NCBI RefSeq assembly: GCF_022524485.1
Contig: NZ_JAKXMK010000006.1
Span: 220,768 to 244,767, forward strand
Direction: 5' to 3'
DNA length: 24,000 nt
From: Pseudonocardia alaniniphila
GTDB taxonomy: Bacteria > Actinomycetota > Actinomycetes > Mycobacteriales > Pseudonocardiaceae
Shown: positions 1 to 20,633 of the stretch, one piece after another
Position numbering within the stretch: the stretch's first letter is position 1
Layout: every line of letters begins with the position of its first letter
Notes under the pieces: model-generated
What the model was told of the DNA's origin: nothing
Databases searched by the model: none
The model's input: only the letters and a program-made list of their open reading frames with translations
Translations under genes and position numbers: made by a program

Positions 1-531
1 GGCGCTCATCAGCAGGAACTGCGCCTGCGGCAGCTCGATCAACGGCACCTGCCACGCCCATCCGCGGTCGGGGTCGGCGTAGAAGTGGAACTCGTCCATC
101 ACCACCGAGCCCACGTCGGCGTCGCGGCCGCCGCGCAGGGCGATGTTGGCGAGGATCTCCGCGGTGCAGCAGATGATCGGGGCCTTCTCGTTGACCGCGG
201 CGTCGCCGGTGAGCATCCCGACCTTGTCGGCCCCGAACACCTCGATGAGCGCGAAGAACTTCTCGCTCACGAGCGCCTTGATCGGCGCGGTGTAGAACGT
301 GCGCTCCCCGCGGGCCAGCGCCGCGGCGTGTGCTCCCACCGCCACCAGCGACTTCCCGGAGCCGGTGGGGGTGGAGAGGATGACGTTGCTGCCGGTGACC
401 AGCTCCAGCAGCGCCTCCTCCTGCGCCGCGTAGAGCGACAGCCCCTGCTCCTCGAACGCCCAGTCGGTGAACGCCTCGACGAGCGCGTCGGGGTCGTCTG
501 GCGTCGGGGGGAGCCGGTCGGTGAGCGTCAT
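1..531 (-). CDS. DEAD/DEAH-box SF2 helicase (Ski2-like, mycobacterial Rv3649/DUF3516-type). Only the N-terminal 177 aa are present; the gene continues past the left edge.
   Basis: My own minus-strand translation from ATG at 531-529 gives [93 protein letters not shown]...[35 protein letters not shown]. It has a Walker A (TPTGSGKS) and a DEFH box. The ORF is absent from the track because it has no stop in the window. Confidence 0.85.
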
Positions 532-613
532 GATGCCTCGATCGTCCCTCGTCCGGCCGACCGTGTGGTCGCCGGGGCCCGCGAACGTCGGCGGCGCCGG
601 GGGCGTGGATCCG

Positions 614-632
614 TACGGTAACCGTTAGCGTA
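614..632. promoter_or_regulatory. 19-bp near-perfect inverted repeat TACGGTAAC-c-GTTAGCGTA in the divergent helicase/ligase-like intergenic region. Candidate operator, and/or a -10 element (TAGCGT 626-631) for a leaderless transcript starting near GTG 639.
   Basis: The arms match 8/9. The site is unusually AT-rich for this genome. No Shine-Dalgarno sequence lies before GTG 639. The core TAAC-N-GTTAGCGT recurs at 15683-15695. Confidence 0.4.
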
Positions 633-638
633 TGCCCC

Positions 639-2246
639 GTGACAGGGCGGCCCAGATCGGACGATCTGCCCGATCTCGTCCCGCCCATGCAGCCGGCCAC
701 GGTGTCGGGGGACCCGCCGTCCGGCCCCGACTGGGTCGTCGAGGTGGCCTGGACGGGCCACCGGTGCATCGCCTACGTGCAGCCGGGCAGGCGGGTCCGG
801 CTGCTCAGCGGGGGCAACAACTCGATGAGCGCCGCCTATCCGGAGCTCACCGAACCGCTGCTGCGCCGCTCGCCGCCGGGCGGCATGGTGCTCGACGGCA
901 CGCTCGTCGCGCGGGGAGAGGAGCACGCGCCACGACCCCGCCTGCTCAAGCGGCGCAGTGCCCGCAACCGCCCGTCGGACGAGACGATCCGGCGGATCCC
1001 GGTGGACTTCCAGGTGGCCGACCTGCTCTGGCTCGACGGGCACAGCACCACCGACCTGCACTACGCCGATCGGCGCGCGCTGCTCGACGGCCTCGGGTTC
1101 GCCAGCCCGCCGGTCTGGACCACATCGCCGCTGCCTGCCACCGAGCTGGACACGATGCTGGCCATCGCCGACCAGAAGGGTGCCGAGGGGCTGCACGCGC
1201 GTCATCTGCGGGGCCGGTACCACCCCGGTGGGCGCTCCCGCTTCTGGATCCGTGTGCCGGTCCGGCGGATGCGCCAGGTGTGCGTCGGCGGGTGGACGCC
1301 GGCCGACCCCCGGCGTCCCGACTCCGTCGGCACGCTGCTGCTCGGCGTGCCGAGCGGTGCGTCGCGCGAGGTGCCGAGCGCACTGCACTACGTCGGGCGG
1401 GTGGGGGTGTCGCTGGAGCAGCGCCGCCAGCTCGCCGCCGCGCTCGTGGCGCGCCGGGTGCCGGTCTCGCCCTTCGTCGGGGACGTGCCTGCCGACGCCG
1501 CCCGCCACGCGAGCTGGGCGGTGCCCGAGCTGGTGGGGCTCGTGGAGTTCACGGGCTGGATCGGCGGCGACCGGATGCGGCGGCCGCAGTGGCGAGGCCT
1601 GCTGGTGCCCGCGGCCGTGCGGGAGACGGCGTGGGCGCGGCCACCGGAGCCGACCCCGGACACCGCGGCGCCGCCGCCGGACCGCCCGCCTGCCCCGAGC
1701 AGGCGTGGCTCCGGCGCATCGCCCGCGTCGCAGTCGCGCGAGCTCGACCCAGCTCCCGTGACGCCGCCGCCCGGGGAGAACAGACGGCTCGAGCAGCACT
1801 TCGTCTACAACTCGCTCAACACCATCGCCGCGCTGATCCGCACCGACCCGTCACGGGCCCGCGAGCTTCTGTTCGGCTTCGCCGACCTGTCCCGTGCCAA
1901 TGATCGGGACGGGACGAGCACTCTCGGTCAGGAGCTGGACGCGGTGCGCGGCTATCTGCAGCTCGAGCAGGCGAGGTTCGGGGCGCGGCTGCAGGTCGAG
2001 ATGGACGTCGAGGGCGGGCTCGAACCGGTGCCGGTGACCGCGATGCAGGTGCTCCACGTCGTGCGCAGGGCGGTACAGGAGGAGATTGAACCGCTCCCCA
2101 ACGGCGGGACACTCTCGGTGGTCGCACGCAGGACGCCTCCGGGCTGCGCGATCACCGTCACCGCCGGTGCCGGAACTCCGACGATGTTGCTGCTCACAGC
2201 CGTACCTGACCGAGTGGGTGACCAGGGCGTGCGCCCCCGAAGGTGA
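639..2246 (+). CDS. Fusion protein: an ATP-dependent DNA-ligase-like domain (LigD/LigC-type adenylation + OB fold, catalytic Lys absent), a Pro-rich linker, then a LytS/YehU-type histidine-kinase module with a degenerate, truncated ATPase domain.
   Basis: The 535-aa track ORF has ligase motifs PPMQPATV, VLDGTLV, FQVADLLWLDG, EGLHARH, FWIRVP and RRPQWRGL. Motif I reads EVAWTGHR instead of ExKxDGxR. The C-terminal part EQHFVYNSLNTIAALIRTDPSRARELL...LQLEQARFGARL matches the His_kinase (LytS) family. The N-box reads VRRAVQEE and the ORF ends before a G2 box. Confidence 0.7.
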   Translation: MTGRPRSDDLPDLVPPMQPATVSGDPPSGPDWVVEVAWTGHRCIAYVQPGRRVRLLSGGNNSMSAAYPELTEPLLRRSPPGGMVLDGTLVARGEEHAPRPRLLKRRSARNRPSDETIRRIPVDFQVADLLWLDGHSTTDLHYADRRALLDGLGFASPPVWTTSPLPATELDTMLAIADQKGAEGLHARHLRGRYHPGGRSRFWIRVPVRRMRQVCVGGWTPADPRRPDSVGTLLLGVPSGASREVPSALHYVGRVGVSLEQRRQLAAALVARRVPVSPFVGDVPADAARHASWAVPELVGLVEFTGWIGGDRMRRPQWRGLLVPAAVRETAWARPPEPTPDTAAPPPDRPPAPSRRGSGASPASQSRELDPAPVTPPPGENRRLEQHFVYNSLNTIAALIRTDPSRARELLFGFADLSRANDRDGTSTLGQELDAVRGYLQLEQARFGARLQVEMDVEGGLEPVPVTAMQVLHVVRRAVQEEIEPLPNGGTLSVVARRTPPGCAITVTAGAGTPTMLLLTAVPDRVGDQGVRPRR

Positions 2247-2271: not shown

Positions 2272-3018
2272 ATGCTCGGCCTCCCTGATGGCACGCGCGC
2301 GTGCCTCTTCGATCTCGACGGTGTCCTGACCGACACCGCCAGCGTGCACGCCGCCGCGTGGAAGCAGATGTTCGACGACTATCTGCGAGCCCGCGCGGAA
2401 CGCGACGGCACCCCGTTCCAGCCCTTCGACGTCAAGGCCGACTACGGCCCCTACGTCGACGGAAAGCCGCGGCTGGCGGGCACCGACGCGTTTCTCCGCT
2501 CACGTGGGATCGAGCTACCGGAGGGTGGGCCCGGTGACCCGCCTGACGCCGAGACGATCTACGCGCTGGCCACCAAGAAGAACGACCTCGTCCAGGAGAA
2601 GATCACCACCGTCGGGGTGACCGTCTACCCCGGGTCGGTCCAGTACCTGCACGCCGTGAAGGACGCGGGCCTGGCCACGGCATGCGTGTCGTCCTCGGCC
2701 AACGCTGCACAGGTGCTCGACGTGGCAGGGCTGAGCTACCTCATCGACCACCGCGTCGACGGCGTCACGGCCCGTGAGCGCGGCCTGCCGGGCAAGCCGG
2801 CACCCGACACGTTCCTCGCCGCGGCGGCCGATCTGGACGTCGACAAGTCGCAGGCCGTCGTCTTCGAGGACGCGCTGGCCGGGGTGGCATCGGGGAAGGC
2901 GGGCGGGTTCGCCTTCGTCGTGGGGGTCGACCGCGTGGGGCACGCCGACGCCTTGCGCGCGAACGGAGCGGACACGGTGGTCACCGACCTCGCACAACTG
3001 CTGGAGGAGCAGCGATGA
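2272..3018 (+). CDS. Beta-phosphoglucomutase-family HAD hydrolase (mycobacterial Rv3400-like).
   Basis: Track ORF 2086..3018 trimmed to ATG 2272 (M63). HAD motif I is present in CLFDLDGVLTDT, motif II in VSSS, and motifs III/IV in GKPAPD...VVFEDALAGV. Its stop overlaps the next start (ATGA at 3015-3018). Confidence 0.85.
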   Translation: MLGLPDGTRACLFDLDGVLTDTASVHAAAWKQMFDDYLRARAERDGTPFQPFDVKADYGPYVDGKPRLAGTDAFLRSRGIELPEGGPGDPPDAETIYALATKKNDLVQEKITTVGVTVYPGSVQYLHAVKDAGLATACVSSSANAAQVLDVAGLSYLIDHRVDGVTARERGLPGKPAPDTFLAAAADLDVDKSQAVVFEDALAGVASGKAGGFAFVVGVDRVGHADALRANGADTVVTDLAQLLEEQR

Positions 3019-5375
3019 GCCCTGACACCGCACGGCCCTTCACCGTGGAGCCATGGGTCGTCCGTGAGCCGAGACTCGATCTCGACACCATCGGCCAGGT
3101 CGAATCGGTGTTCGCGCTGTCGAACGGCCACATCGGGTTGCGGGGCAACCTCGACGAGGGGGAGCCCAACGCCTGGCCGGGCACCTACCTCAACTCGTTC
3201 TACGAGCGCCGGCCCCTGCCGTACGCCGAGGGTGGCTACGGCTACCCCGAATCCGGCCAGACGATCATCAACGTCACCAATGGCAAGCTGATCCGGCTGC
3301 TCGTCGAGGACGAGCCGTTCGACCTGCGCTACGGCGAGCTGCGCCGTCACGAGCGGGTGCTCGACCTGCGCGCCGGCACGCTCACCCGCGAGGTGGAGTG
3401 GGCGTCGCCCGCCGGCCGGGTGGTCGCCGTGCGCAGCACGCGGATGGTCTCGCTCACCCAGCGGGCCGTCGCCGCGATCTGTTACGAGGTCGAGGTGCTC
3501 GACGCGCCGGCGCTGCTCGTCGTGCAGTCGGAGCTGGTGGCCAACGAACAGATGCCGGCCCGCAACGACGACGACCCGCGCGTCGAGGCCGCGCTGACCG
3601 ACCCGCTGGTCGCCGAGCAGTACCGCGCCGACGAGGCGGGCGCGATCCTGATCCACCACACCCGCCGGTCCGCCCTGCGGGTGGCGGCGGCGATGGACCA
3701 CGAGGTCCACGGGCCCGACGGCGTGAGCGTCAGCTCGGAGGCCAGCGACGACATCGGGCGCACCACGGTGATCACCCGGCTGCAGCCGGGGCAGAAGCTG
3801 CGGATCATCAAGTACCTGGCGTACGGCTGGTCGGCCCGGCGCTCGCAGCCGGCGTTGCACGACCAGGTGCGCGCGGCGCTGGCCGCGGCCCGCTACACGG
3901 GCTGGGAGGGCCTGCTGGCGGAGCAGCGCCAGTACCTCGACGACTTCTGGGAGACCGCCGACGTCGAGATCGACGGTGACGCGGAGCTGCAGCAGGCCGT
4001 GCGGGTGGCGGTCTTCCACGTGCTGCAGGCCGGTGCCCGGGCGGAGCGACGGGCGATCGGGGCCAAGGGCCTGACCGGCGAGGGCTACGACGGCCACACC
4101 TTCTGGGACACCGAGACCTTCTGCCTGCCGGTGCTCTCGCACCTCGCGCCGGAGGCTGCCGCTGACGCGCTGCGGTGGCGGCAGTCGATCCTCCCGATGG
4201 CGTACGAGCGCGCCGAGCAGCTGGGGCTCTCCGGAGCGGCGTTCCCCTGGCGGACGATCCGCGGGCACGAGTGCTCGGGCTACTGGCCCGCCGGCACCGC
4301 GGCGTTCCACATCAACGCCGACATCGCCGACGCGGTGCGCCGGCACGTCGCCGCCACGGGCGATGTCGACTTCGAGCGTGAGGTCGGGCTGGAGCTGCTG
4401 GTGGCCACCGCGCGGTTGTGGCGCTCGCTGGGGCACCACGACTCCGCCGGACAGTTCCGGATCGACGGCGTGACGGGCCCGGACGAGTACACGGCCATCG
4501 TCGACAACAACGTCTACACGAACCTCATGGCCCAGCAGAACCTGCGGGTCGCCGCCGACACGGCCGCGCGGCACTCGCGTGCGGCGGGGCGGCTGGGCGT
4601 CAACGCCGAGGAGATGGCGAGCTGGCGCGACGCCGCCAAGTCGATGCGCATCCCCTACGACGAGGTGCTGGGCGTCCACCCGCAGTCGGAGGGCTTCACC
4701 AACCACCAGGGCTGGGACTTCGAGAACACCCCACCGGAGAAGTACCCGCTGCTGCTGCACGTGCCCTACTTCGACCTGTACCGCAAGCAGGTCTCGAAGC
4801 AGGCCGACCTGGTGCTGGCGATCCAGCTGCGACCGGACGCGTTCACCACGGAGCAGATGCAGCGCAACTTCGCCTACTACGAGGCCATCACGGTGCGCGA
4901 CTCGTCGCTGTCGGCCTGCACCCAGGCCGTCGTCGCGGCGTGGACGGGGCACCTGGACCTGGCATACGACTACCTCGCCGAGGCCGCGCTGGTCGACCTG
5001 AACAACCTTGCAGGCAACACCGAGCACGGCGTGCACATCGCGTCGATGGCGGGCACCTGGACGGCCGTCGTCTCCGGGTTCGGCGGGATGCGGCTCGACA
5101 ACGGCGGCATCGCGTTCGCCCCGCAGCTGCCGCCTGCGCTGTCGCGCATCTCGTTCGGCCTGAAGTGGCAGGGCCGGCAGCTGCGCGTGGAGATCCGGCC
5201 CGGTGAGGCCGAGTACCGGCTCGTCAGCGGGCCTCCGATGCGGCTGCGCCACCACGGCGAGCCGCTGGCCCTCGCCGACGCCCCGCAGGTGCGACCGATC
5301 GTGCCGTGTGAGCCCGTCGAGCCGGTCGAGCAGCCCTACGGTCGCGCTCCCAACGCCCGCCACCCCGGGAGCTGA
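3015..5375 (+). CDS. Glycoside hydrolase family 65 disaccharide phosphorylase (kojibiose/trehalose/maltose phosphorylase-like, Rv3401-like).
   Basis: 786 aa with GH65 signatures VFALSNGHIGLRGNLDEGEP, GAKGLTGEGYDGHTFWDTETF and IDGVTGPDEYTAIVDNNVYTN (catalytic Glu region). A GGAGGAG RBS lies 5 nt upstream. It is coupled to the pgmB-like gene, which is the canonical pairing. Confidence 0.9.
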   Translation: MSPDTARPFTVEPWVVREPRLDLDTIGQVESVFALSNGHIGLRGNLDEGEPNAWPGTYLNSFYERRPLPYAEGGYGYPESGQTIINVTNGKLIRLLVEDEPFDLRYGELRRHERVLDLRAGTLTREVEWASPAGRVVAVRSTRMVSLTQRAVAAICYEVEVLDAPALLVVQSELVANEQMPARNDDDPRVEAALTDPLVAEQYRADEAGAILIHHTRRSALRVAAAMDHEVHGPDGVSVSSEASDDIGRTTVITRLQPGQKLRIIKYLAYGWSARRSQPALHDQVRAALAAARYTGWEGLLAEQRQYLDDFWETADVEIDGDAELQQAVRVAVFHVLQAGARAERRAIGAKGLTGEGYDGHTFWDTETFCLPVLSHLAPEAAADALRWRQSILPMAYERAEQLGLSGAAFPWRTIRGHECSGYWPAGTAAFHINADIADAVRRHVAATGDVDFEREVGLELLVATARLWRSLGHHDSAGQFRIDGVTGPDEYTAIVDNNVYTNLMAQQNLRVAADTAARHSRAAGRLGVNAEEMASWRDAAKSMRIPYDEVLGVHPQSEGFTNHQGWDFENTPPEKYPLLLHVPYFDLYRKQVSKQADLVLAIQLRPDAFTTEQMQRNFAYYEAITVRDSSLSACTQAVVAAWTGHLDLAYDYLAEAALVDLNNLAGNTEHGVHIASMAGTWTAVVSGFGGMRLDNGGIAFAPQLPPALSRISFGLKWQGRQLRVEIRPGEAEYRLVSGPPMRLRHHGEPLALADAPQVRPIVPCEPVEPVEQPYGRAPNARHPGS

Positions 5376-5403
5376 CCCCCGCAGAACCCGCTGAGCTGGT
5401 CGT

Positions 5404-5435
5404 CTCCACCATCGGGCGGACCGCCCGTGGTGGAG
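5404..5435 (+). terminator. Strong GC-rich stem-loop downstream of the GH65 gene (CTCCACCA-t-CGGGCGG a CCGCCCG-TGGTGGAG). Likely a factor-independent terminator without a U-tract.
   Basis: A 15-bp stem with one bulge lies 29 nt after the stop codon, followed by a new transcription unit. The missing T-tract is common in actinobacteria but lowers confidence. Confidence 0.5.
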
Positions 5436-5503
5436 GCGTACCGGCTCGGCGGGGTGGGTATGCGAGTCCACTGATGCTTCCCGGACCCGGCGGAAGGACG
5501 AAT

Positions 5504-5863
5504 GTGGACCTCGACCGTGCCCGCACGCTCCTCACCACCGAGCTGGCCGAACTCGCCGAGCGCGAACGGTTCGCCCAGTCGAGCCTGGCGCAGGCGTCGG
5601 CCGACATGGTCGGCGAGGAAGGCTCCCTGGGCCAGCATCCGGCCGACTACGGCTCCGAGGTGAACAGCACGATGGAGGCCGAGCTGAGCGTCGGCACCAT
5701 CGCCGAGCAGCGCCGCCGGCTGATCGACGCCGTCGAGCGGATCGACGCGGGAACCTACGGCCGCTGCGCCGTCTGCGACCACCAGATCGACGACGAGCGG
5801 CTGGAGGCCCGGCCGGAGGCGGCGACCTGCCGGGCGCACGCGGACAGCCCTGTGGTCACCTGA
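5504..5863 (+). CDS. TraR/DksA-family zinc-finger protein.
   Basis: The track ORF is 5474..5863. I prefer GTG 5504 because GGAAGGA lies 5 nt upstream; ATG 5474 is the alternative. The C-terminal zinc finger is GRCAVCDHQIDDERLEARPEAATCRAH (CxxC-x17-CxxH), preceded by coiled-coil-like sequence. Confidence 0.75.
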   Translation: MDLDRARTLLTTELAELAERERFAQSSLAQASADMVGEEGSLGQHPADYGSEVNSTMEAELSVGTIAEQRRRLIDAVERIDAGTYGRCAVCDHQIDDERLEARPEAATCRAHADSPVVT

Positions 5864-5922
5864 CGGGCGGTCCCGCGTGGTTCGGTGGGTAGGGGGCCGT
5901 TCGGGCGGGTAGTGAGCCCAGT

Positions 5923-6981
5923 GTGAGTGAGGTCCCACTCGGGCTGGTCCGCGTCGATCCCGAGACACCCGGCATGACCCGACGCCGCCGTGGGCGCGGG
6001 TGGAGCTACTACGACGCTGCCGGTAGCCCGCTCGCCGACCCCGCGGAGATCGCCCGGATCAGGGCCTTGGTCATCCCTCCCGCCTGGCAGGACGTGTGGA
6101 TCTCCTCGGACCCGGATGGGCACATCCAGGCTGTGGGCGTCGATGCGGCGGGCCGGCGCCAGTACCGCTACCACGAGGAATGGCGGCGTCTGCGGGACCA
6201 GGAGAAGTACGACCGGGTCCTCGGCCTGGGGAGGCGGTTGCCCGACGTGCGGATCGAGCTGCTGGACCGGCTGGCGGAGAAGGGCCTCGGGCGGGACCGC
6301 GTGCTGGCTGCCGGCGTGCGGATGCTCGACATCGGGGTCTTCCGGTCGGGCGGCGAGGAGTATGCCCCCGGGGACGACGACGAGGACGGCACCTTCGGGC
6401 TGGCGACGCTGCGGCGCGAGCACGTCCAGCTCAAGCGCGGCGCCGTCCTGTTCTCCTACCCGGCCAAGGGCGGGATCCCGCGCACCATCGCGCTGCGGGA
6501 CCCACTGCTGCACAAGGTCGTCAACTCGTTGCTGCGCCGCCGCGGCGGCGGGGAGGACCTGCTCGTCTACCGCGTGGGCCGGGACTGGCACGACGTGCGG
6601 GCCGAGGACCTGAACACGGCGGTGAAGGAGCTGATGGGGGAGCAGCACACCTGCAAGGACCTGCGCACCTGGAACGCCACAGTGCTGGCCGCCGTCACGT
6701 TGGCGGCGGGCGTGGCACAGGGCGGCGTCCCGGAGAAGGAGCGGGCGCGGGGGCGCGTGGTGAACCGGGCGATCAAGGAGGTGGCGGAGCACCTCGGCAA
6801 CACCCCGGCAGTCGCCCGTAGCTCCTACGTCGACCCGCGGGTGCTCGAGCGTTTCGAGGAGGGGCGCACCGTGCTGCCGGCGCTGCGCAGGATGAACGGA
6901 TCCTCGCCGGTCCCCGACCTGACCGACGACGCGATCCGGGCGACGGTCGAGCGGGCCGTGGTGCGCCTGATCGGCTCCTGA
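5923..6981 (+). CDS. DNA topoisomerase IB (bacterial poxvirus-like type).
   Basis: 352 aa with IPPAWQDVWIS, RRQYRYHEEW, YPAKGG (Lys), KDLRTWNAT (Arg) and HLGNTPAVARSSYVDP. The Asn sits 9 residues before the catalytic Tyr, as in Deinococcus TopIB Asn280/Tyr289. Confidence 0.9.
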   Translation: MSEVPLGLVRVDPETPGMTRRRRGRGWSYYDAAGSPLADPAEIARIRALVIPPAWQDVWISSDPDGHIQAVGVDAAGRRQYRYHEEWRRLRDQEKYDRVLGLGRRLPDVRIELLDRLAEKGLGRDRVLAAGVRMLDIGVFRSGGEEYAPGDDDEDGTFGLATLRREHVQLKRGAVLFSYPAKGGIPRTIALRDPLLHKVVNSLLRRRGGGEDLLVYRVGRDWHDVRAEDLNTAVKELMGEQHTCKDLRTWNATVLAAVTLAAGVAQGGVPEKERARGRVVNRAIKEVAEHLGNTPAVARSSYVDPRVLERFEEGRTVLPALRRMNGSSPVPDLTDDAIRATVERAVVRLIGS

Positions 6982-8503: not shown

Positions 8504-9277
8504 CTACGCGTCGTCCTCCGTGATCCGCCTGCGCATCTGCGCCAGCGTCTGGGACAGCAGCCGCGACACGTGCATCTGGGAGATCCCGACGCGGTCGGCG
8601 ATCTGGGTCTGCGTGAGGTTGCCGAAGAAGCGCAGCAGCAGGATCGTCCGCTCCCGCTCGGGGAGCTCTTCCAGGAGCGGGGCGAGGGCCTCCCTGTACT
8701 CCACCTTCTCGAGTTCCGTGTCGGCGCTGCCGAGCGTGTCGGTCAGAGTGGTGTCGGCGCCTGCCACGAGCTCGTCCAGAGAGGTGCTGCGGTAGGCCTG
8801 CTGGGCGTCCAGGCCCTCGACGACCTCCGCGGGTGGGATGCCGATACGCATCGCGATCTCGCTGGGCCGCGGAGCCCGGCCCAGTTCCTGGGACAGGGGG
8901 CCGATGGCCGAGTTGATGGCGCTCTGCAGGTCCTTGAGGCGCCGCGGCACCCGCATCGACCAGGTCCGGTCGCGGAAGTGCCGCCGGATCTCGCCGGTGA
9001 TGGTGGGTACGGCGTAGGAGAGGAAGTCGACGCCGCGGTTCGGCTCGAACCGATCCACCGCGTTCAGCAGGCCGACGGTGCCGGCCTGCTCGAGGTCGTC
9101 GACCGGCTCGCCGCGCCCGGCGAAGCGCCGGGCGATGTGCCGCGCCACCGGCAGGTAACCTGTCACGAGCTTCTGGCGCAGCCCGGCTCGGCCAGGATCG
9201 TCCGGCGGCAGGGACGCGAACTCGGCGAACAACGGCGCCAAGTGGGCGTAGTCGGATTCGCGGGAGGAGTCAGACAC
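8504..9277 (-). CDS. SigB/SigF/SigG-family (group 3) RNA polymerase sigma factor.
   Basis: 257 aa. Region 2 is DLEQAGTVGLLNAVDRFEPNRGVDFLSYAVPTITGEIRRHFRDRTWSMRVPRRL. Region 4 is ERERTILLLRFFGNLTQTQIADRVGISQMHVSRLL. No RsbW/UsfX-type anti-sigma gene is adjacent. Confidence 0.9.
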   Translation of the reverse strand: MSDSSRESDYAHLAPLFAEFASLPPDDPGRAGLRQKLVTGYLPVARHIARRFAGRGEPVDDLEQAGTVGLLNAVDRFEPNRGVDFLSYAVPTITGEIRRHFRDRTWSMRVPRRLKDLQSAINSAIGPLSQELGRAPRPSEIAMRIGIPPAEVVEGLDAQQAYRSTSLDELVAGADTTLTDTLGSADTELEKVEYREALAPLLEELPERERTILLLRFFGNLTQTQIADRVGISQMHVSRLLSQTLAQMRRRITEDDA

Positions 9278-9405
9278 GGCGCACCGGGCACCTGGGGCAG
9301 GGATCGGGTCGCACCGTGTGAGCTACCCGCGAGCAGTCGGGAGAAAACGCTCGCGCTGGTACGTTCGTAAGCTGCCATTCCGTCCGTCCGCTTCGCGAAG
9401 GTGAA

Positions 9406-11879: not shown

Positions 11880-12291
11880 TCAGTGCGGTGGTGATGGCGG
11901 ACGCGGGGGGTTCGCGCAGCGGGCGAGTGTGCCCGAGAGCGGATGGTGCTGTTGCTCGATGTAGTGCCGCAGGATGCTGGGTGGTGCACCGCTGAGCGAG
12001 GACCACAAGCGCTGCGCACGCCAGTAGTGCCGCGCGAGGTCGGGGAACTCGTGGCGCAGACGGCGCGAGGAGACGCCTTTGAGGCTGTTGACCAGCTTCG
12101 AGATGGCGACCTTGGGCGGGAAGTTGACCAGGCCGGTGAACTCGACCAGCTCGATCTCCAAGTTGTCGCAGACAGCCCGCGTGATCTTTTCCAGCCGGGT
12201 GCGGTGTCGCTCGCTGAACACCCGGCCGGTACTTCGTGACGAAAACCAAGTGCGCGTGCAGCAGGAAAGAGCAGTGTCTGTCAGTGCGGAT
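11880..12291 (-). pseudogene. tnpA: IS200/IS605 Y1 transposase TnpA, decayed: start codon lost, frameshifted, and HUH and catalytic Tyr segments missing.
   Basis: Minus-strand frame A reads (I)RTDRHCSFLLHAHLVFVTKYR. It then shifts frame near 12219-12232 to RVFSERHRTRLEKITRAVCDNLEIELVEFTG-LVNFPPKVAISKLVNSLKGVSSRRLRHEFPDLARHYWRAQRLWSSLSGAPPSILRHYIEQQ. The expected E.DHVHL between EFTG and LVNFPP is absent. The expected SYFAGSVG after LWS is absent. ATC sits where ATG is expected at 12291-12289. Confidence 0.75.
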
Positions 12292-12302
12292 ACGGTGATC
12301 GG

Positions 12303-13496
12303 GTGCAGCTCCGGTACGCCTACCGCCTTAATCCGACACCGGATCAGCGGATCGCCCTCGCGAAGGCGTTCGGGTGCGCACGAGTGGTGTTCAACGACGC
12401 CGTCGCCGCACGCCGAGCAGCACATCTCGCAGGGGGTCCATACCCGACTGACGCGGCATTGTCGAAGGCGCTTACCGCCGCGAAGCGGACTCCCGAGCGG
12501 CCGTGGCTTGCCGAGGTGTCCGCAGTGGTGCTGCAGCAGGCGTTGGCCGATGCGAACACCGCCTACCGAAACTTCTTCGCCTCCCTCACCGGGAAACGGA
12601 AGGGACGCAAGCTGGGCGCACCCCGGTTCAGGTCGAAACGAGACAGGGCACAGTCGATCCGGTTCACCAAGGCCGCCCGGTTCCGAGTGACCCCCGCCGG
12701 TTGTCTAAGACTCCCCGGTATCGGCGACGTCCCCGTCCGCTGGTCCCGCGAGCTGCCGGCCGACGCCTCGAGCGTGACCGTGACCGTGGATGCCTCGGAC
12801 CGGTACCACGCCTCGTTCGTGGTAGAGGTCGACGACCAGCTACTCCCGCCGGCCGGGCGGCAGGTGGGGATCGACCTCGGGTTGACCCATTTCGCGGTGC
12901 TCTCCGATGGCCGCAAGGTCGACAACCCGCGTATCGCACGCAAGGCCGCGGCGAAGCTCCGGCGGGCACAACAAGAACTGTCCCGCCGTCAGAAGGGGTC
13001 GGCTAACCGCGGCAAGTCGGTACGCAAGGTCGCGCGCTGCCATGCCCGGGTCGGGGATACCCGTAGGGACTGGCTCCACAAGCTGTCGACCACGATCGTC
13101 CGCGAAAACCAAGCGGTCTATGTGGAAGACCTCGCCGTGTCCGGCCTTGCCCGCACACGGCTCGCTCGCTCGGTGAACGACGCCGGGTGGTCCACGTTCG
13201 TCGGCATGCTGGCGTACAAGGCGGCACGTCACGGGCGAACGTTCGCCAAGGTCGACCGCTGGTTGCCCTCCACCCGTGCATGCTCGACGTGCGGGGCCAT
13301 CGGCGAGGCCAAGCCCCTGCACGTGCGTGAATGGGTCTGCCCCTGCGGTGCTGTGCACGACCGGGACATCAACGCAGCAATCAACATCCTGGCCGCCGGA
13401 CGGGCGGACAGGCCAACGCCTGTGGAGACGACGTCAGACCTCGGCTTGCCGGGGCAGTTGTCCGCGAAGCAGGAACCCACCGGGAGCGCCGCATGA
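12303..13496 (+). CDS. tnpB: TnpB (OrfB_IS605 + zinc ribbon) RNA-guided endonuclease. The RuvC triad appears intact.
   Basis: 397 aa starting MQLRYAYRLNPTPDQR. RuvC-I is VGIDLGLTHFAV (D191, nt 12873-12875). RuvC-II is AVYVEDLAV (E275, nt 13125-13127). The zinc ribbon is CSTCG...CPCG. RuvC-III is HDRDINAAINIL (D355, nt 13365-13367). Confidence 0.9.
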   Translation: MQLRYAYRLNPTPDQRIALAKAFGCARVVFNDAVAARRAAHLAGGPYPTDAALSKALTAAKRTPERPWLAEVSAVVLQQALADANTAYRNFFASLTGKRKGRKLGAPRFRSKRDRAQSIRFTKAARFRVTPAGCLRLPGIGDVPVRWSRELPADASSVTVTVDASDRYHASFVVEVDDQLLPPAGRQVGIDLGLTHFAVLSDGRKVDNPRIARKAAAKLRRAQQELSRRQKGSANRGKSVRKVARCHARVGDTRRDWLHKLSTTIVRENQAVYVEDLAVSGLARTRLARSVNDAGWSTFVGMLAYKAARHGRTFAKVDRWLPSTRACSTCGAIGEAKPLHVREWVCPCGAVHDRDINAAINILAAGRADRPTPVETTSDLGLPGQLSAKQEPTGSAA

Positions 13497-15821: not shown

Positions 15822-16868
15822 CTACGCCGTGGCGACCCCGGGCCCGCACAGCTGCGCCCCCTGGCGCAGGATCGTGCGGGCCATCTCCCGGTCGCGCCGG
15901 CCCAGCCCGCACGACGCGGCGATGTCGACCGGACGACCGAGCGCCTCCTCGACGGCCGTCATCGCCGAGCGCAGCTCGTCGGCCGTCCGGCCCTCGTGCA
16001 GGAGCCCGGCGACGAACCGGGTGTCCGGGGGCAGGCGCAGCGCCGAGAGTCGCGCGTAGAACGCCGGGTCGAGCGGTGGGGGCTCCTCACCCGCGGCCAG
16101 CGGTGCGTGGACGAGTTCCAGACGGTGATCGGACGGCCAGCGGGCGGCCAGGGCGTTGAGCAGCGTGACGACGGGGCCCGTGTCGTGCAACCGGAACAAT
16201 GCGGTGTGTTGCAGGTCACCCATGCACAGGTGCAGCCCGAAACGCGTGCCCTCCGGGGTGAGGCGCACCAGCGCGGCGACCGTGCGGGCGAGCCAGGCCG
16301 CGACGATCGGGCGTACCGGCGCGGGACTCATCGCGACGAAGGCGAGCTCGGCGGGCATCTCGAGCTGGACGAGCACGTCGTCGCCTGCGTCATCGCGGAT
16401 GCGGCTGATCTCCCTGGCGATGGCTTCGGAAAAGGGCCGCCGGTAGAGAAGCGGACCTCGGGGGCCCATGGTGAACATCGACATGCCGAGACCGGTCGGC
16501 AGGCCGATCTGGAAGATCAGGTCCGTGCGGCCGTGTGCCTGACGGGCCGCGTCGAACACCGGCCGTGCCTCGGCGTACGTCTCCGGGTAGCCGAAGTGCA
16601 GGGAGTCGCCGCGGAGCCGGTGGCCGCGGCGGACCCGGAAGTTGAGGAGCCGGTCGTAGCCCGCGAAGTCGCCCTCTCGGCGGACCTCCAGATCGGGGTG
16701 CGCGCGCAGGCCTTCCATCACCGAGGCGATCCAGTTGCGTCGATCACCGGTCTCGCCGTCGGGCAGCGTGGCAAGGTACGGCCCGGCCAGCTCCAGCATC
16801 TCGTTCATCGCGTCGGCCGTCGTGCCGGCCGGAAAGCTTCCGACCATGTGCAGCGCCCGGTTGATCAT
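15822..16868 (-). CDS. Cobalamin-independent methionine synthase (MetE C-terminal/UROD-like) family protein of unknown specificity.
   Basis: 348 aa with HMVGSFPAGT (compare MetE TTIGSFPQT), LHLCMGD (an HxC zinc-ligand-like motif) and IAASCGLGRR (compare PDCGLKTR). The assignment rests on remembered motifs only. Confidence 0.55.
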   Translation of the reverse strand: MINRALHMVGSFPAGTTADAMNEMLELAGPYLATLPDGETGDRRNWIASVMEGLRAHPDLEVRREGDFAGYDRLLNFRVRRGHRLRGDSLHFGYPETYAEARPVFDAARQAHGRTDLIFQIGLPTGLGMSMFTMGPRGPLLYRRPFSEAIAREISRIRDDAGDDVLVQLEMPAELAFVAMSPAPVRPIVAAWLARTVAALVRLTPEGTRFGLHLCMGDLQHTALFRLHDTGPVVTLLNALAARWPSDHRLELVHAPLAAGEEPPPLDPAFYARLSALRLPPDTRFVAGLLHEGRTADELRSAMTAVEEALGRPVDIAASCGLGRRDREMARTILRQGAQLCGPGVATA

Positions 16869-16932
16869 GAATCGAGCGTGAGCAATGGCAAAGACTTCGT
16901 CAAGTCACGCCATGGGGTGACCTATCCCAAGG

Positions 16933-17658
16933 TCAAGTGCGGGTTGCGGCCAGCAGCGCTGCCATGAGCCGGATGTCGGTGGCGTCCTGTTCGGGATGCC
17001 ACTGCACACCTACCACGAACGGGCGCTCGTCGAGTTCCACGGCCTCGACGGTGCCGTCGCCCGCACGGGCGGTGACGACCAGGCCGTCGGCGAGCCGGTC
17101 GAGGGCCTGGTGGTGGTGGCACTGCACCGCCACCGTGGTGCCGACCGCGGTGGCCACGCGGCCACCGGGAACCAGGTCGACCATGGTGGTGGCGAACTTG
17201 CCGGGGGTGGGGTTGTGCCCGTTGTGCCCGACGGCATCGGGCAGGTGCTGGACGAGGGTGCCGCCGAGAGCGACGTTGAGCATCTGCAATCCGCGGCAGA
17301 CGCCGAGTACCGGGATCTCACGCTCGAGCGCCCGCTGCAGCATCGCGATCTCGGCGGCGTCGCGCTCGGCCCGCGCGGCGCCGGTGAGGGGATGGCGGTC
17401 CGCCCCGTAGCGCTGCGGGTCGATGTCGGGCCCCCCGGACAGCACGAGTGCGTCGATCCGGTCGACGGCCGCGGCTGCCTGCGGGCGCGGTGGCAGGAGC
17501 ACGGGGATCCCGCCCGCGGCGAAGACGATGTCGGGATACGTGCTGGGCAGGAGCACGGTGTCGTGGTCCCACACCCCGTACGCCGCGCGCTCCCCGTAGG
17601 TGGTGAGCCCGACGACGGGACGATCGGGGCCGTGAGGATCAGAGCCGTTCGAAGCCAC
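16933..17658 (-). CDS. Gamma-glutamyl-gamma-aminobutyrate hydrolase family protein (peptidase C26, class I glutamine amidotransferase-like; PuuD-like).
   Basis: Track ORF 16933..17823 trimmed to GTG 17658, giving MASNGSDPHGPDRPVVGLTTYG. The catalytic motifs are LGVCRGLQMLN and VGVQWHPE. It overlaps the upstream GlnA-like gene by 20 nt. Confidence 0.85.
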   Translation of the reverse strand: MASNGSDPHGPDRPVVGLTTYGERAAYGVWDHDTVLLPSTYPDIVFAAGGIPVLLPPRPQAAAAVDRIDALVLSGGPDIDPQRYGADRHPLTGAARAERDAAEIAMLQRALEREIPVLGVCRGLQMLNVALGGTLVQHLPDAVGHNGHNPTPGKFATTMVDLVPGGRVATAVGTTVAVQCHHHQALDRLADGLVVTARAGDGTVEAVELDERPFVVGVQWHPEQDATDIRLMAALLAATRT

Positions 17659-19030
17659 GCCTGCGCTCCCAGTCGGTGACGGCCGCGTCGAAGGCGGCCA
17701 ACTCCACTCGTGCGGCGTTGGCGTAGTGATCGACAACTTCCTGGCCGAACGCCGCGAGGGCCACCTTGGACCCGGCGAAGAGCTCGGCCGCTTCTCGCAG
17801 CGTACCGGGCACTCGAGGGGCATCGGAGGTGTAGGCGTTGCCGACGAGCTCCGGCGACAGTTGCAGCTCGTTCTCGATGCCGTGCAGCCCTGCGGCGATC
17901 ACAGCGGCGACGCCCAGGTACGGGTTCATGTCGCCGCCGGGTACGCGGTTCTCCACGCGCAGCGACGGGCCGTGCCCGACGACGCGTAGCGCGCAGGTGC
18001 GGTTGTCCACACCCCATGCGACGGCCGTGGGCGCGAAGGAGCCGTCGGCGTAGCGTTTGTAGGAGTTGATGTTGGGCGCGAACAGGTAGGTGAGCTCGCG
18101 CAGGCATGCCTGCTGCCCCGCGATGAACTGCGCGAACAGCGGGGAGAAGCCGTGCTCCTCACCGGGCGTAGCGCCAGCGGAGCCCGCATCGGCACTGCCG
18201 GCGAAGACCGGTCCGTCCTGCCCACGCAGTGAGATGTGGATGTGGCAGGAGTTGCCCTCCCGCTCGTCGTACTTCGCCATGAAGGTGAGCGCCATGCCCG
18301 CCTGGTCGGCGATCTCCTTGGCGCCCGTCTTGTAGATCGAGTGGTTGTCGCAGGTGGTGAGCGCGTCGGCGTAGCGGAAGGCGATCTCGTGCTGGCCGAG
18401 GTTGCATTCGCCCTTCGCCGACTCGACGACCATGCCTGCGCCGGCCATCCCGTTGCGGATCCGGCGCAGCAGCGGCTCCACGCGTGCCGTGCCGAGCATC
18501 GAGTAGTCGACGTTGTACTGGTTCGCCGGCTCGAGCTGCTGGTAGCCCTTGCGCCACGCCGTGTCGAACGAGTCGGCGAAGAGCATGAACTCCAGCTCGG
18601 TGCCCACGTCGGCCTGCAGACCGCGCTCGGCGAGCCGCTCCAGCTGGGCACGCAGGATCTGCCGCGGTGACGCGACCACGGGCGAGCCGTCGGCCCACTG
18701 AGCGTCGCAGAGCACGAGCGCCGTGGCCTCGTGCCACGGGACCTGCCGCAGCGTCGTGAGGTCGGGCTTCAGCACGAAGTCGCCGTAGCCGCGCTCCCAG
18801 CTCGACATCGCGTAGCCGGCGACGGTGTTCATCTCGACGTCGACGGCCAGCAGGTAGTTGCAGGCCTCCGCCGCGTGCGGCACGACCTCGCCCAGGAAAT
18901 ACGTGGCCGCGCAGCGTTTGCCCTGCAGCCGGCCCTGCATGTCGGTGAACGCCACCAGCACGGTGTCGATCGACCCGTCGTCGACGGCGACGCGCAGCTG
19001 GTCGAGGGTGAGCATGCCGCGTGGTCTCAT
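17639..19030 (-). CDS. Glutamine synthetase-family gamma-glutamyl-amine ligase (GlnA3/GlnA4-like; gamma-glutamylpolyamine/ethanolamide synthetase-like).
   Basis: 463 aa with VGTELEFMLF, ESAKGECNLGQHEIAFRY, FMAKYDEREGNSCHIHISL, NSYKRY and RVENRVPGGDMNPYL. Confidence 0.9.
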   Translation of the reverse strand: MRPRGMLTLDQLRVAVDDGSIDTVLVAFTDMQGRLQGKRCAATYFLGEVVPHAAEACNYLLAVDVEMNTVAGYAMSSWERGYGDFVLKPDLTTLRQVPWHEATALVLCDAQWADGSPVVASPRQILRAQLERLAERGLQADVGTELEFMLFADSFDTAWRKGYQQLEPANQYNVDYSMLGTARVEPLLRRIRNGMAGAGMVVESAKGECNLGQHEIAFRYADALTTCDNHSIYKTGAKEIADQAGMALTFMAKYDEREGNSCHIHISLRGQDGPVFAGSADAGSAGATPGEEHGFSPLFAQFIAGQQACLRELTYLFAPNINSYKRYADGSFAPTAVAWGVDNRTCALRVVGHGPSLRVENRVPGGDMNPYLGVAAVIAAGLHGIENELQLSPELVGNAYTSDAPRVPGTLREAAELFAGSKVALAAFGQEVVDHYANAARVELAAFDAAVTDWERRRGFERL

Positions 19031-19043
19031 GTGATCGAGGATC

Positions 19044-20633
19044 TCACGGTGTTTCGGTCTCCAGCTCCCGTTCGGTGATCGGCGGCTCCTCCTCGATGCC
19101 CACTTCGCGCACCGGTCCCGTGAACCAGCGGCGCGCCGAGAGCAGGTACCAGCCGCCGAACAAGATCAGCGCCCCGCCCACGGTGAGCGGCGCGTAGTTG
19201 ACCACGTTCCAGTCGAAGTCGGCGGCGCCCGGAATGCCCTTGGGGGAGACCGGCATCAGGAAGAGCAGGCACACGATGGCGATCCAGGCGACCGCGACCG
19301 GCGCGATCCACCGGTAGTGGTGACCGAGGCTCCACGCCCCGCCCTCGAACCGGGCACCGGCCCGGATCCGCAGGATGATCGGCAGCGCGAACGCGATGTA
19401 GAGCCCGATCACCGCGATGGACGTGCCGACGAGGTAGCCGACCACACCGTTGGCGAGCGTCGGCAGCATCAGCGCCCAGCTCAGCACGGCGATCGCGATC
19501 ACCGCGTTCACCGGCACGCGGTTCGCCGCGACCTTGCGCCACACCCGCGAGCCGGGCACAGCGCCGTCACGGGAGAAGGCGAACATCATCCGCGACGCCG
19601 ACGTCACCGACGCCGTACCGCAGAAGAACTGTCCGACCACCGCGATGAGCAGCAGGAACTCCGCCCAGGCCGTACCGAGCGACTCGGTCCAGATGTAGAC
19701 CACCGCATTGCCCAGAGCGTCGAGCGTGCCCTGCACGTCGGGCACGGCGAACGTCACGGCCACCAGGAGCACGAAGCCGAAGAGCACCGACACGGCGACC
19801 GACATGACCATGCCCCACGCCGCGGCACGAGACGCCAGCCGCGTCTCCTCGCTCATGTGCGCAGAGGCGTCGTACCCGGTGATCGTGTACTGGGCCATGA
19901 GCAGGCCGATGCCGAACACGAACCAGAAGCCGACGTCGCCGAACCCGTTGCCGGCGAACCCGGAGTTGTTGATCGTCTCCCCGAAGACGAACGCCGCGGA
20001 CTGGTGGTTCTCCGGGATGACGATCAGCACGGCGACGATGACGACCACGCCGATCATGTGCCACCAGGCGGAGACCGTGTTGAGCCGCGCGAGCAGGTTG
20101 ACGTTCAGCAGGTTGAGCGCGAGGTGCAGCGCGACGATCACGGAGTAGACCACGAAGACCGTGCCGGTGCCGGTGCCGGCGACGGTGGGGAACCAGAGGT
20201 TGAGCAGCGCGGTCGTGAAGATCGCGGCGCCGTAGTCAATCGCGGCGGTCACCGCGATCTGCCCGACCAGGTTGAACCAGCCGGTGAACCAGCCCCACGC
20301 CGGACCGCCGAGCTTCGACGCCCAGAAGTACAGCGCGCCGGCGGTGGGCATCGCCGAGGCGATCTCACCCATGGCCATCGCCACCAGCACACAGAAACCG
20401 CCGACGAGGAGCCAGCCCCACGTGATGGCGACGGGCCCACCGTTGTTGAACGCGATGTAGTACGAGGTCAGGCAGCCGGCGAGGATCGAGATGATCGTGA
20501 AGGAGATCGCGAAGTTGGAGAACCCGCCCATCTCGCGGTAGAGCACCTGCACGTATCCGAGACGATGCAGGGTGGCCTCGTCGTCGTCCTTGCCCACGCT
20601 GTTCCTGTCGTCGGTCCGGTCGTTCGTGGGCAT
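19044..20633 (-). CDS. APC-superfamily amino acid/amine permease (12 TM-type).
   Basis: Track ORF 19044..21848 trimmed to ATG 20633, with GGAGGT 5 nt upstream. The product starts MPTNDRTDDRNS...LGYVQVLYREMGGFSNFAISFTIISILAGC and has multiple hydrophobic segments. The N-terminal 405 aa of the track ORF is out-of-frame read-through across the kinase gene. Confidence 0.9.
   Translation of the reverse strand: MPTNDRTDDRNSVGKDDDEATLHRLGYVQVLYREMGGFSNFAISFTIISILAGCLTSYYIAFNNGGPVAITWGWLLVGGFCVLVAMAMGEIASAMPTAGALYFWASKLGGPAWGWFTGWFNLVGQIAVTAAIDYGAAIFTTALLNLWFPTVAGTGTGTVFVVYSVIVALHLALNLLNVNLLARLNTVSAWWHMIGVVVIVAVLIVIPENHQSAAFVFGETINNSGFAGNGFGDVGFWFVFGIGLLMAQYTITGYDASAHMSEETRLASRAAAWGMVMSVAVSVLFGFVLLVAVTFAVPDVQGTLDALGNAVVYIWTESLGTAWAEFLLLIAVVGQFFCGTASVTSASRMMFAFSRDGAVPGSRVWRKVAANRVPVNAVIAIAVLSWALMLPTLANGVVGYLVGTSIAVIGLYIAFALPIILRIRAGARFEGGAWSLGHHYRWIAPVAVAWIAIVCLLFLMPVSPKGIPGAADFDWNVVNYAPLTVGGALILFGGWYLLSARRWFTGPVREVGIEEEPPITERELETETP

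Follow-up and report, generated by a model that had tools for sequence, protein, structure and literature searches.

The gene at nucleotides 639–2246 of a 24,000-nucleotide stretch of the Pseudonocardia alaniniphila genome (contig NZ_JAKXMK010000006.1, positions 220,768 to 244,767; hereafter the window) encodes a fusion protein whose N-terminal 325 residues are a LigD-derived adenylation and OB fold without the residues of nucleotidyl transfer, and whose C-terminal part is a LytS-type dimerization and histidine phosphotransfer (DHp) domain followed by a remnant of the ATPase, or catalytic (CA), domain. By sequence comparison the protein is a derived, kinase-dead branch of a Pseudonocardiaceae family of orphan histidine kinases with a "ligase-fold sensor". 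A first-pass annotation, made from the DNA sequence alone, had noticed this fusion and left two readings side by side, a pseudoenzyme used as a sensor or scaffold and a decaying chimeric gene. The coordinates given there were all confirmed. The fusion is a genuine, conserved and selected gene, with purifying selection acting on each of its folded parts. Beyond what that annotation had recognized, it belongs to a larger family with complete-kinase sister clades, and two subclades of this family are linked to Ku.

A LigD-type fold without ligase chemistry

The open reading frame has a GC content at third codon positions (GC3) of 0.89, as expected for genuine genes of this 72% GC window. Pfam identified DNA_ligase_A_M (residues 29–205, E = 2e-16), DNA_ligase_A_C (PF04679; residues 228–321, E = 3e-11) and His_kinase (PF06580; residues 383–451, E = 3.4e-14) in the 535-residue product; the two ligase models, PF01068 and PF04679, both exceed their Pfam cutoffs, and the kinase model scores 53.3 bits against a cutoff of 25.2. 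The nearest solved structure is the ligase domain of Mycobacterium tuberculosis LigD (PDB 1vs0), which aligns with residues 20–322 at 30% identity (E = 2.8e-29), and Foldseek matched the AlphaFold2 (AF2) model of the protein to this same structure over about 327 columns (E = 6.5e-23). Pfam, the 1vs0 alignment and Foldseek therefore agree on a ligase fold along the roughly 320 residues for which it had been proposed. The fusion shares the full-length adenylation and OB fold with LigD (Rv0938; PDB 1vs0/6nhz) but lacks its polymerase and phosphoesterase domains, and carries a histidine kinase core instead.

Residue-by-residue comparison with 1vs0 bore out the substitutions first reported in motifs I, IV and V and added the losses in motifs Ia, III, IIIa and VI. 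Motif I reads EVAWTGHR where LigD has EGKWDGYR, with A37 encoded by nt 747–749 and T39 by nt 753–755. In motif Ia, SRSG has become SGGN, with loss of the arginine; in motif III, LDGE has become LDGT, with loss of the glutamate; and in motif IIIa, AFDLL has become VADLL, with loss of the aromatic residue. Motif IV (EGVIAKR to EGLHARH) and motif V (WVKDK to WIRVP) have lost their lysines, and motif VI reads RGLLVPA for RGLRPDK. Only two lysines occur in the entire protein, the poorly conserved K104 and K180, and neither lies within a catalytic motif. The NCBIfam models give a concordant picture: the N-terminal part is closest to LigD-type non-homologous end-joining (NHEJ) ligases, yet scores well under the curated cutoffs (129.5 bits for TIGR02779, NHEJ_ligase_lig, against 227.75). 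The ligase-like part is also more basic than its functional counterparts, with a median net charge of +9 (+12 in the window protein) as compared with +2 for 64 true LigD ligase domains.

One loop of this domain, between motifs III and IIIa (residues 92–110, nt 912–968), is longer than its counterpart in M. tuberculosis LigD and is near-invariant and highly charged in the window clade (ARGEEHAPRPRLLKRRSAR). This loop is a candidate for an interaction surface specific to the clade.

A kinase stub with an intact H-box

Searched against PDB sequences, the C-terminal module matched GanS alone. The first half of the ATPase domain aligns with GanS, and in the comparison with its kinase domain (6swj) the phospho-acceptor-type histidine named by the first-pass annotation is His387 of an intact H-box, EQHFVYNSLN. 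The suspicion that the ATPase part is non-functional also proved well founded. The N-box, LIENAFIHGIE in GanS, is VVRRAVQEEIE, with arginine (Arg477, nt 2067–2069) in place of the asparagine, and this asparagine is gone in all members of the window clade in which the motif can be read. Alignment with complete relatives shows the G1 box DDGxG replaced by TAGAG, and the protein ends 24 residues further on; the ATP lid, the G2 box and the elements that follow them are missing when the protein is aligned with those relatives and with GAF kinases. HATPase_c (PF02518) gave no Pfam match in the window protein even at E <= 10. Neither room nor an alternative frame for the absent kinase half was found before the next gene, and what looks like a C-terminal truncation could have arisen by internal loss of the lid and G2 segment, with the last strand retained. 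The CA remnant is thus predicted to be unable to bind ATP, which would make the protein neither a ligase nor an autokinase.

The AF2 model, built from a 70-sequence alignment, has a mean pLDDT (predicted local distance difference test) of 87, with values of 82–97 in the adenylation domain, 93–97 in the OB domain, 42–60 in the linker and 89–97 in the DHp and ATPase remnant. The DHp is modeled as three helices and the CA remnant, with confidence, as a small alpha/beta unit. A 40-sequence alignment left the adenylation domain at pLDDT <50, and the Foldseek match of that model to the kinase domain of GanS spans 124 columns. The AF2 secondary-structure map contains no helix longer than 14 residues ahead of the DHp, although a dedicated transmembrane predictor was not run.

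In its DHp the fusion shares the HFxxNxLN H-box and conserved histidine of LytS/YehU-type kinases such as GanS (6swj/6swk). It differs from them in having a ligase fold N-terminal to the DHp instead of a membrane (5TM-Lyt) or GAF sensor, and in lacking the N-box asparagine, the G1 box, the ATP lid, the G2 box and an adjacent LytTR regulator. Spo0B, ChpT and the kinase-dead DivL (PMC4211667) have a DHp bundle with a CA-like domain that does not bind ATP, and they take part in signaling without autophosphorylation. The window protein resembles them in architecture only, in that it combines a DHp histidine with a CA-like domain that does not bind ATP; no sequence relationship to them was detectable in the PDB search, its CA remnant is far smaller, and its N-terminal partner is a ligase fold. 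Because both ligase chemistry and the required ATPase are lacking, the window protein should not be filed in either the ligase or the histidine kinase enzyme family.

Conservation and selection in the window clade

A homologue search of 5.8 billion proteins gave 498 matches at E <= 1e-3, and among the best 120 of these all but one are full-length fusions with the same three Pfam domains. These 120 are 56–92% identical to the query, and practically all of the named ones come from Pseudonocardia species. Isolates and metagenomes together contribute more than 118 clusters with intact reading frames of about 486–570 residues. In an alignment of 118 sequences the "dead" motifs are near-invariant, as is the segment RRLEQHFVYNSLNTIAALIRTDP surrounding the histidine. 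At the position of the motif I lysine the 120 listed homologues have alanine in 116 cases, aspartate in four and lysine in none, whereas the phospho-acceptor-type histidine, with the whole HFxYN H-box, was kept in 119/119 window-clade homologues by alignment-based extraction. Related genomes thus keep both the fusion and the same substitutions. The window and sister clades share an invariant E-x-x-W-x-G frame in motif I and an invariant LDG in motif III, and the motif I arginine is nearly invariant, which indicates that the pocket scaffold is under selection.

Substitution rates point the same way. Against the closest orthologue (dS 0.21), Nei-Gojobori dN/dS was 0.014 in the adenylation domain, 0.26 in the OB domain, 1.07 in the linker, 0.10 in the DHp and 0.09 in the ATPase remnant, and the pattern was alike for a second close orthologue and for that of P. 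xinjiangensis. Across the close orthologues the adenylation domain ranged from 0.014 to 0.055 and the CA remnant from 0.09 to 0.21, and the linker gave 1.07 and 0.74; dS approaches saturation in deeper comparisons, so the reliable values are those of the three closest. The linker also varies in length and sequence across the family. Over long distances the DHp is the best-kept part of the fusion (71–83%). The adenylation domain, 96% identical between the window protein and its P. xinjiangensis orthologue (L001), drops to just 42% in deeper comparisons, a pattern that could reflect episodic adaptive change. The reading as a decaying chimeric gene is refuted by a fusion that recurs in more than 118 orthologues, down to 40–45% identity and at the same locus, with dN/dS well below 1 in its folded parts.

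A family of ligase-fold kinases in Pseudonocardiaceae

An exhaustive search of 1.84 billion representative sequences recovered more fusions at 40–45% identity, and in P0129, P0130, P0131 and P0140 the motif I lysine is missing and the kinase is full. By a scan of species-representative genomes, complete forms were located in Actinomycetospora species and in Pseudonocardiaceae metagenome-assembled genomes (MAGs). They carry V, T, D, F or S at the lysine position and K or V at the position of the motif III glutamate, together with an intact H-box, an N-box (ENAVRHG), a G1 box (DDGxG) and the C-terminal ATPase half, and hence all four domains including HATPase_c. When the ligase part alone of one complete form served as query in a further large search, the best 120 matches were all from uncultured soil Pseudonocardiaceae. 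Save for a few ligase-only entries, some of them fragments, these 120 have the ligase-kinase architecture only, and none of them joins the ligase part to another output domain. Database labels of sister-clade members read "NHEJ DNA ligase", "LigD-like" or "histidine kinase". In these clades the motif I lysine is present in 0/117 sequences (0/237 with the window clade added) and the histidine in 116/116.

No description of this architecture, or of a ligase-fold sensor domain, was found in the open-access literature searched (subscription journals lay outside its scope), and the same literature yielded no relevant paper on ligase pseudoenzymes or on GAF-LytS/LytTR systems in actinobacteria. The gene does not stand alone, being the kinase-dead branch of a family whose other members carry all four domains.

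In a neighbor-joining tree of the ligase part, calculated without bootstrap support values, all fusions form one clade and the truncated Pseudonocardia clade is nested within the complete forms. Sister to all fusions is P0167, a stand-alone ligase-like protein of 328 residues that likewise lacks the motif I lysine (EFLWEGLR) and may represent the pre-fusion pseudo-ligase. Its gene (608–1594 of L088) lies on a short contig from a metagenome, between genes for a LuxR/GerE-type regulator and a Ser/Thr protein kinase. The tree supports a series of pseudoenzymes within one lineage, namely a dead ligase, then a dead ligase with a live kinase, then one with a dead kinase, for which an active LigD ancestor is presumed. 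The likely course is that a LigD ligase domain lost its chemistry and fused, already dead, to a kinase core, that the fusion spread within the Pseudonocardiaceae, and that in Pseudonocardia it moved beside a helicase gene and lost the ATP-binding half of the kinase. The ten proteins encoded around the fusion in the window had no tblastn matches at the loci of complete forms (L007–L029), which shows that these forms occupy other loci.

Linkage to Ku and kinship with a resident GAF kinase

Ku adjoins the fusion in two sister subclades and in two orientations. It is convergent and immediately downstream at L021, L024 and L029, and co-directional and immediately upstream, with a gap of 20–24 nt, at L025, L026 and L091–94. 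The co-directional loci belong to a large clade of soil Pseudonocardiaceae MAGs, and in L091–L094 Ku lies at about 3618–4562 and the fusion at about 4478–6178. A position beside Ku is the usual place of LigD, and public annotations of the lysine-less gene in the soil clade read "non-homologous end-joining DNA ligase" or "LigD". One Ku-adjacent fusion even passes the NCBIfam cutoff for the NHEJ ligase domain (234 versus 227.75). With no motif I lysine, the Ku-adjacent fusion should not form a ligase-AMP intermediate.

Among unfused kinases the nearest is a soluble, 400-residue protein with GAF-His_kinase-HATPase_c architecture. Its gene belongs to a five-gene cluster (L047, 6021–10550, and equivalent positions in L031–L086, about 45 loci) that encodes a 162-residue protein, a Nei/Fpg-family DNA glycosylase, the GAF kinase, an S49 peptidase and a LytTR response regulator. 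More than 45 Pseudonocardia genomes, fusion-carrying ones among them, keep this GAF-kinase/LytTR cluster; the kinase-regulator pair is also present in Catellatospora, and the kinase is 79–94% identical among named Pseudonocardia species. The glycosylase gene ends a few bases before the GAF kinase gene begins. Within single genomes, the DHp of complete fusions is 71–80% identical to that of the resident GAF kinase, from which the kinase module was evidently copied, and that of truncated fusions is 47–56% identical. From this resemblance, complete fusions could plausibly address the LytTR regulator of the GAF kinase. The absence of a LytTR regulator near the window gene, which the first-pass annotation had remarked on, was upheld by tblastn with a Pseudonocardia LytTR regulator, which found none in the window or in seven orthologous loci; such genomes do hold one elsewhere, beside the GAF-kinase paralogue.

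The locus in Pseudonocardia

The head-to-head helicase and the short gap to a sugar-phosphorylase pair were confirmed (Table 1), and the order of divergent DEAD/DUF3516 helicase, fusion, HAD hydrolase and GH65 phosphorylase is constant in all fetched orthologous loci that reach far enough, even at an orthologue with just 40–45% identity. A DNA alignment of seven loci shows conservation of a TAnnGT hexamer, of GTGAC at the start and of codons 10–17. This pattern suggests that the fusion transcript is leaderless and arises from the -10-like hexamer. A sigma-70 promoter scan gave no match, and no SOS box, PafBC-type motif or other genus-wide operator was seen in the region between helicase and fusion. 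No Rfam family was found in the window. The gap between fusion and HAD gene contains no terminator-like element in the window and varies from 25 to 303 nt among orthologues.

PADLOC defense-system models had no match in the window protein or in two complete-kinase relatives, and gave only generic partial helicase-core matches, mostly to HamB, for the helicase. Identification of this helicase with mycobacterial SftH was considered and dropped, as SftH carries DUF1998, not DUF3516 (PMC3424565); no paper on a "DUF3516 helicase" was found in the literature searched.

Further downstream, the type IB topoisomerase gene is found at the orthologous loci L001 and L004 and is missing from L002, L003 and L090, and each orthologous locus retains the UvrD-like helicase, a few genes downstream of the fusion. 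The TnpB gene looks like a recent insertion, since the P. xinjiangensis locus (L001) has none. Upstream of a Peptidase_C26/glutamine-synthetase-like pair, which is reminiscent of a module for gamma-glutamyl-amine catabolism, lies a 360-residue open reading frame.

Table 1. Features of the window, in nucleotides from its first base.
Feature	Position	Strand	Evidence or remark
Helicase, 5′ part, SF2 DEAD-box	1–531	-	ATG at 531–529; orthologues about 841 aa, C-terminal DUF3516
Divergent intergenic region	532–638	.	-10-like TAGCGT at 626–631, 7 nt before GTG
Pseudo-ligase/DHp fusion, whole gene	639–2246	+	GTG start, 535 aa
Adenylation (nucleotidyltransferase) fold, aa 29–205	723–1253	+	Catalytic residues all replaced; PF01068, 1vs0 alignment, AF2, Foldseek
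Motif I remnant EVAWTGHR	741–764	+	Lys nucleophile to Ala37, Asp to Thr39
OB-fold domain, aa 228–321	1320–1601	+	Motif VI RxDK lost; PF04679, 1vs0 alignment, pLDDT
Pro-rich linker, aa 326–378	1614–1772	+	Predicted disordered; pLDDT, dN/dS
LytS-type DHp, aa 383–451	1785–1991	+	His387 at nt 1797–1799; PF06580, GanS 6swj match
ATPase (CA) domain remnant, aa 452–520	1992–2198	+	Alignment with complete relatives and GAF kinases
Beta-phosphoglucomutase-family HAD hydrolase	2272–3018	+	25 nt after fusion gene
GH65 glycoside phosphorylase	3015–5375	+	Follows HAD
DksA/TraR-type zinc-finger protein, then bacterial type IB topoisomerase	5474–6981	+	Top1B_N_bact and Topoisom_I
Sigma-70 family factor	8504–9322	-	Regions 2, 3, 4; head-to-head with UvrD-like helicase
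UvrD-like/AAA_19 helicase, about 840 aa	9322–11844	+	N-terminal two thirds with faint Pfam support only
IS605/IS200-family TnpB	12240–13496	+	HTH_OrfB_IS605, OrfB_IS605, Cas12f1-like TNB; between UvrD-like helicase and short-chain dehydrogenase
360-aa open reading frame	15825–16904	-	Gene-like codon composition, GC3 0.88; no Pfam family
Peptidase_C26/glutamine-synthetase-like pair	16936–19165		

Proposed function and alternatives

The explanation that we favor, tentatively, is that of a soluble protein in which a LigD-derived binding or sensor module is tethered to a phosphotransfer and dimerization module that does not autophosphorylate, and which may modulate the GAF-kinase/LytTR pathway. 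The pseudoenzyme sensor or scaffold of the first-pass annotation fits the purifying selection, the conserved dead motifs and the Ku-linked relatives with complete kinases. Since the head is more basic than LigD ligase domains and Ku lies beside the sister-clade genes, we infer that the likeliest ligand is a DNA end, a nick or a Ku-DNA complex, for which the ligase-like head would serve as binding or sensor module. The flexible linker of about 50 residues would tether the head to the DHp, through which the protein would dimerize. In complete members, engagement of the head would control autophosphorylation, and the flexibility of the linker suggests that such control may operate through ligand-templated dimerization rather than rigid allostery. 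In the window protein, ligand-bound heads would alter the flow of phosphate to a LytTR-type regulator, the possible roles being those of a phosphatase, a Spo0B/ChpT-like phosphotransfer intermediate or a titrator of partners, and not autophosphorylation.

Several observations weigh against this explanation. The Ku adjacency could be a relic of a LigD ancestor and not a sign of present function, and it is not seen in the window clade, in Actinomycetospora or in the V-type clade. No response regulator is adjacent at any fusion locus examined, and the DHp of the truncated clade has diverged from that of the GAF kinase, so that a shared partner is uncertain. The motif Ia arginine, a DNA contact in ligases, is lost from the window protein, and nick recognition of the kind seen in ligases is therefore not assured. 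Classical sensor kinases rely on rigid helical coupling, to which this long and neutrally evolving linker bears no likeness. The fusion has changed faster than the genes beside it (40–62% identity versus 74–95%), and the synteny of the window clade is confined to one genus and thus carries little functional information. Finally, DNA binding, Ku interaction and phosphotransfer are each something that we infer.

The main rival is a pure repair scaffold, in which the DHp only dimerizes two DNA-binding pseudo-ligase heads and ends or nicks are bridged or marked, without phosphoryl chemistry, for enzymes such as the DEAD/DUF3516 helicase. We consider this rather unlikely, though several points favor it: the ATP-binding half of the kinase is gone, the flexible tether would suit two heads that bind independently, the ligase-like part is strongly positive, an SF2 helicase stands head-to-head in every orthologous locus with upstream sequence, and the UvrD-like helicase and type IB topoisomerase are nearby. 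The helicase adjacency, however, is limited to one genus and may be inherited gene order. In addition, the histidine and its HFxYN H-box have stayed invariant (119/119) despite the loss of ATP binding, where a plain dimerization helix would tolerate a change of the histidine, and the CA remnant is still under purifying selection. The invariance of the histidine after loss of ATP binding favors signaling over a scaffold, if weakly.

The remodeled pocket might instead bind a small molecule (a nucleotide, an NAD-derived compound or a sugar phosphate), with the protein regulating the HAD and GH65 genes or general metabolism. The terminator-free gap of 25 nt to these genes, the order conserved in the genus, and the invariance of the motif I frame and pocket scaffold alongside changed catalytic residues are consistent with this proposal. 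We nevertheless judge it improbable, because the gap to the HAD gene is so variable among orthologues, because the sister clades have Ku rather than HAD and GH65 neighbors, and because residues that hold the nucleotide (the motif III glutamate, the motif V lysines and the motif IIIa aromatic residue) have been lost.

A residual enzyme, either a ligase or nucleotidyltransferase with a non-canonical nucleophile or a kinase that uses the ATPase domain of a partner in trans, is very improbable. The ligase fold and pocket frame are retained, the histidine is invariant and a paralogous complete kinase is encoded in the same genomes; against this, K104 and K180 lie outside the catalytic motifs, none of the catalytic residues in motifs I, III, V and VI is preserved, nor is the lysine of motif IV, and the low DHp identity to the resident GAF kinase makes heterodimerization doubtful. 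A decaying pseudogene, or an assembly or frameshift artifact, can hardly be credited: the lack of catalytic residues in both halves and the faster evolution relative to neighbors would suit it, but the intact reading frames, the invariant dead motifs, dN/dS of 0.01–0.26 throughout the folded parts, with values near 1 confined to the linker, the confident AF2 model and the lack of space or an alternative frame for the missing kinase half all speak against it.

Implications

Whatever its ligand, the window clade bears on annotation, because neither the label "NHEJ ligase/LigD" nor that of "histidine kinase", taken as an enzymatic assignment, can be right for it. Any tally of NHEJ capacity in Pseudonocardiaceae based on such labels is inflated as a result.

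Bacterial DNA-damage responses run via RecA/LexA and, in actinobacteria, PafBC. To our knowledge, and in the literature searched, direct sensing of DNA lesions has yet to be shown for any two-component system. It is conceivable, and we regard it as doubtful rather than probable, that the Pseudonocardiaceae possess a pathway that reads DNA breaks directly, in which the pseudo-ligase acts, with Ku, as the sensor of an orphan kinase that feeds the LytTR regulator shared with the GAF kinase, and of which the window protein represents the kinase-dead branch. In such a pathway the window protein might act as a phosphatase in response to damage, pass phosphoryl groups on as an intermediate, or bridge DNA ends beside the DUF3516 helicase. 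If true, this would amount to a two-component system that senses DNA breaks directly and to the repurposing of a DNA ligase fold, neither of which we found described in the literature searched. With a dead LigD fold standing in the place of LigD beside Ku, the family offers a concrete, testable candidate for a two-component sensor of DNA lesions.

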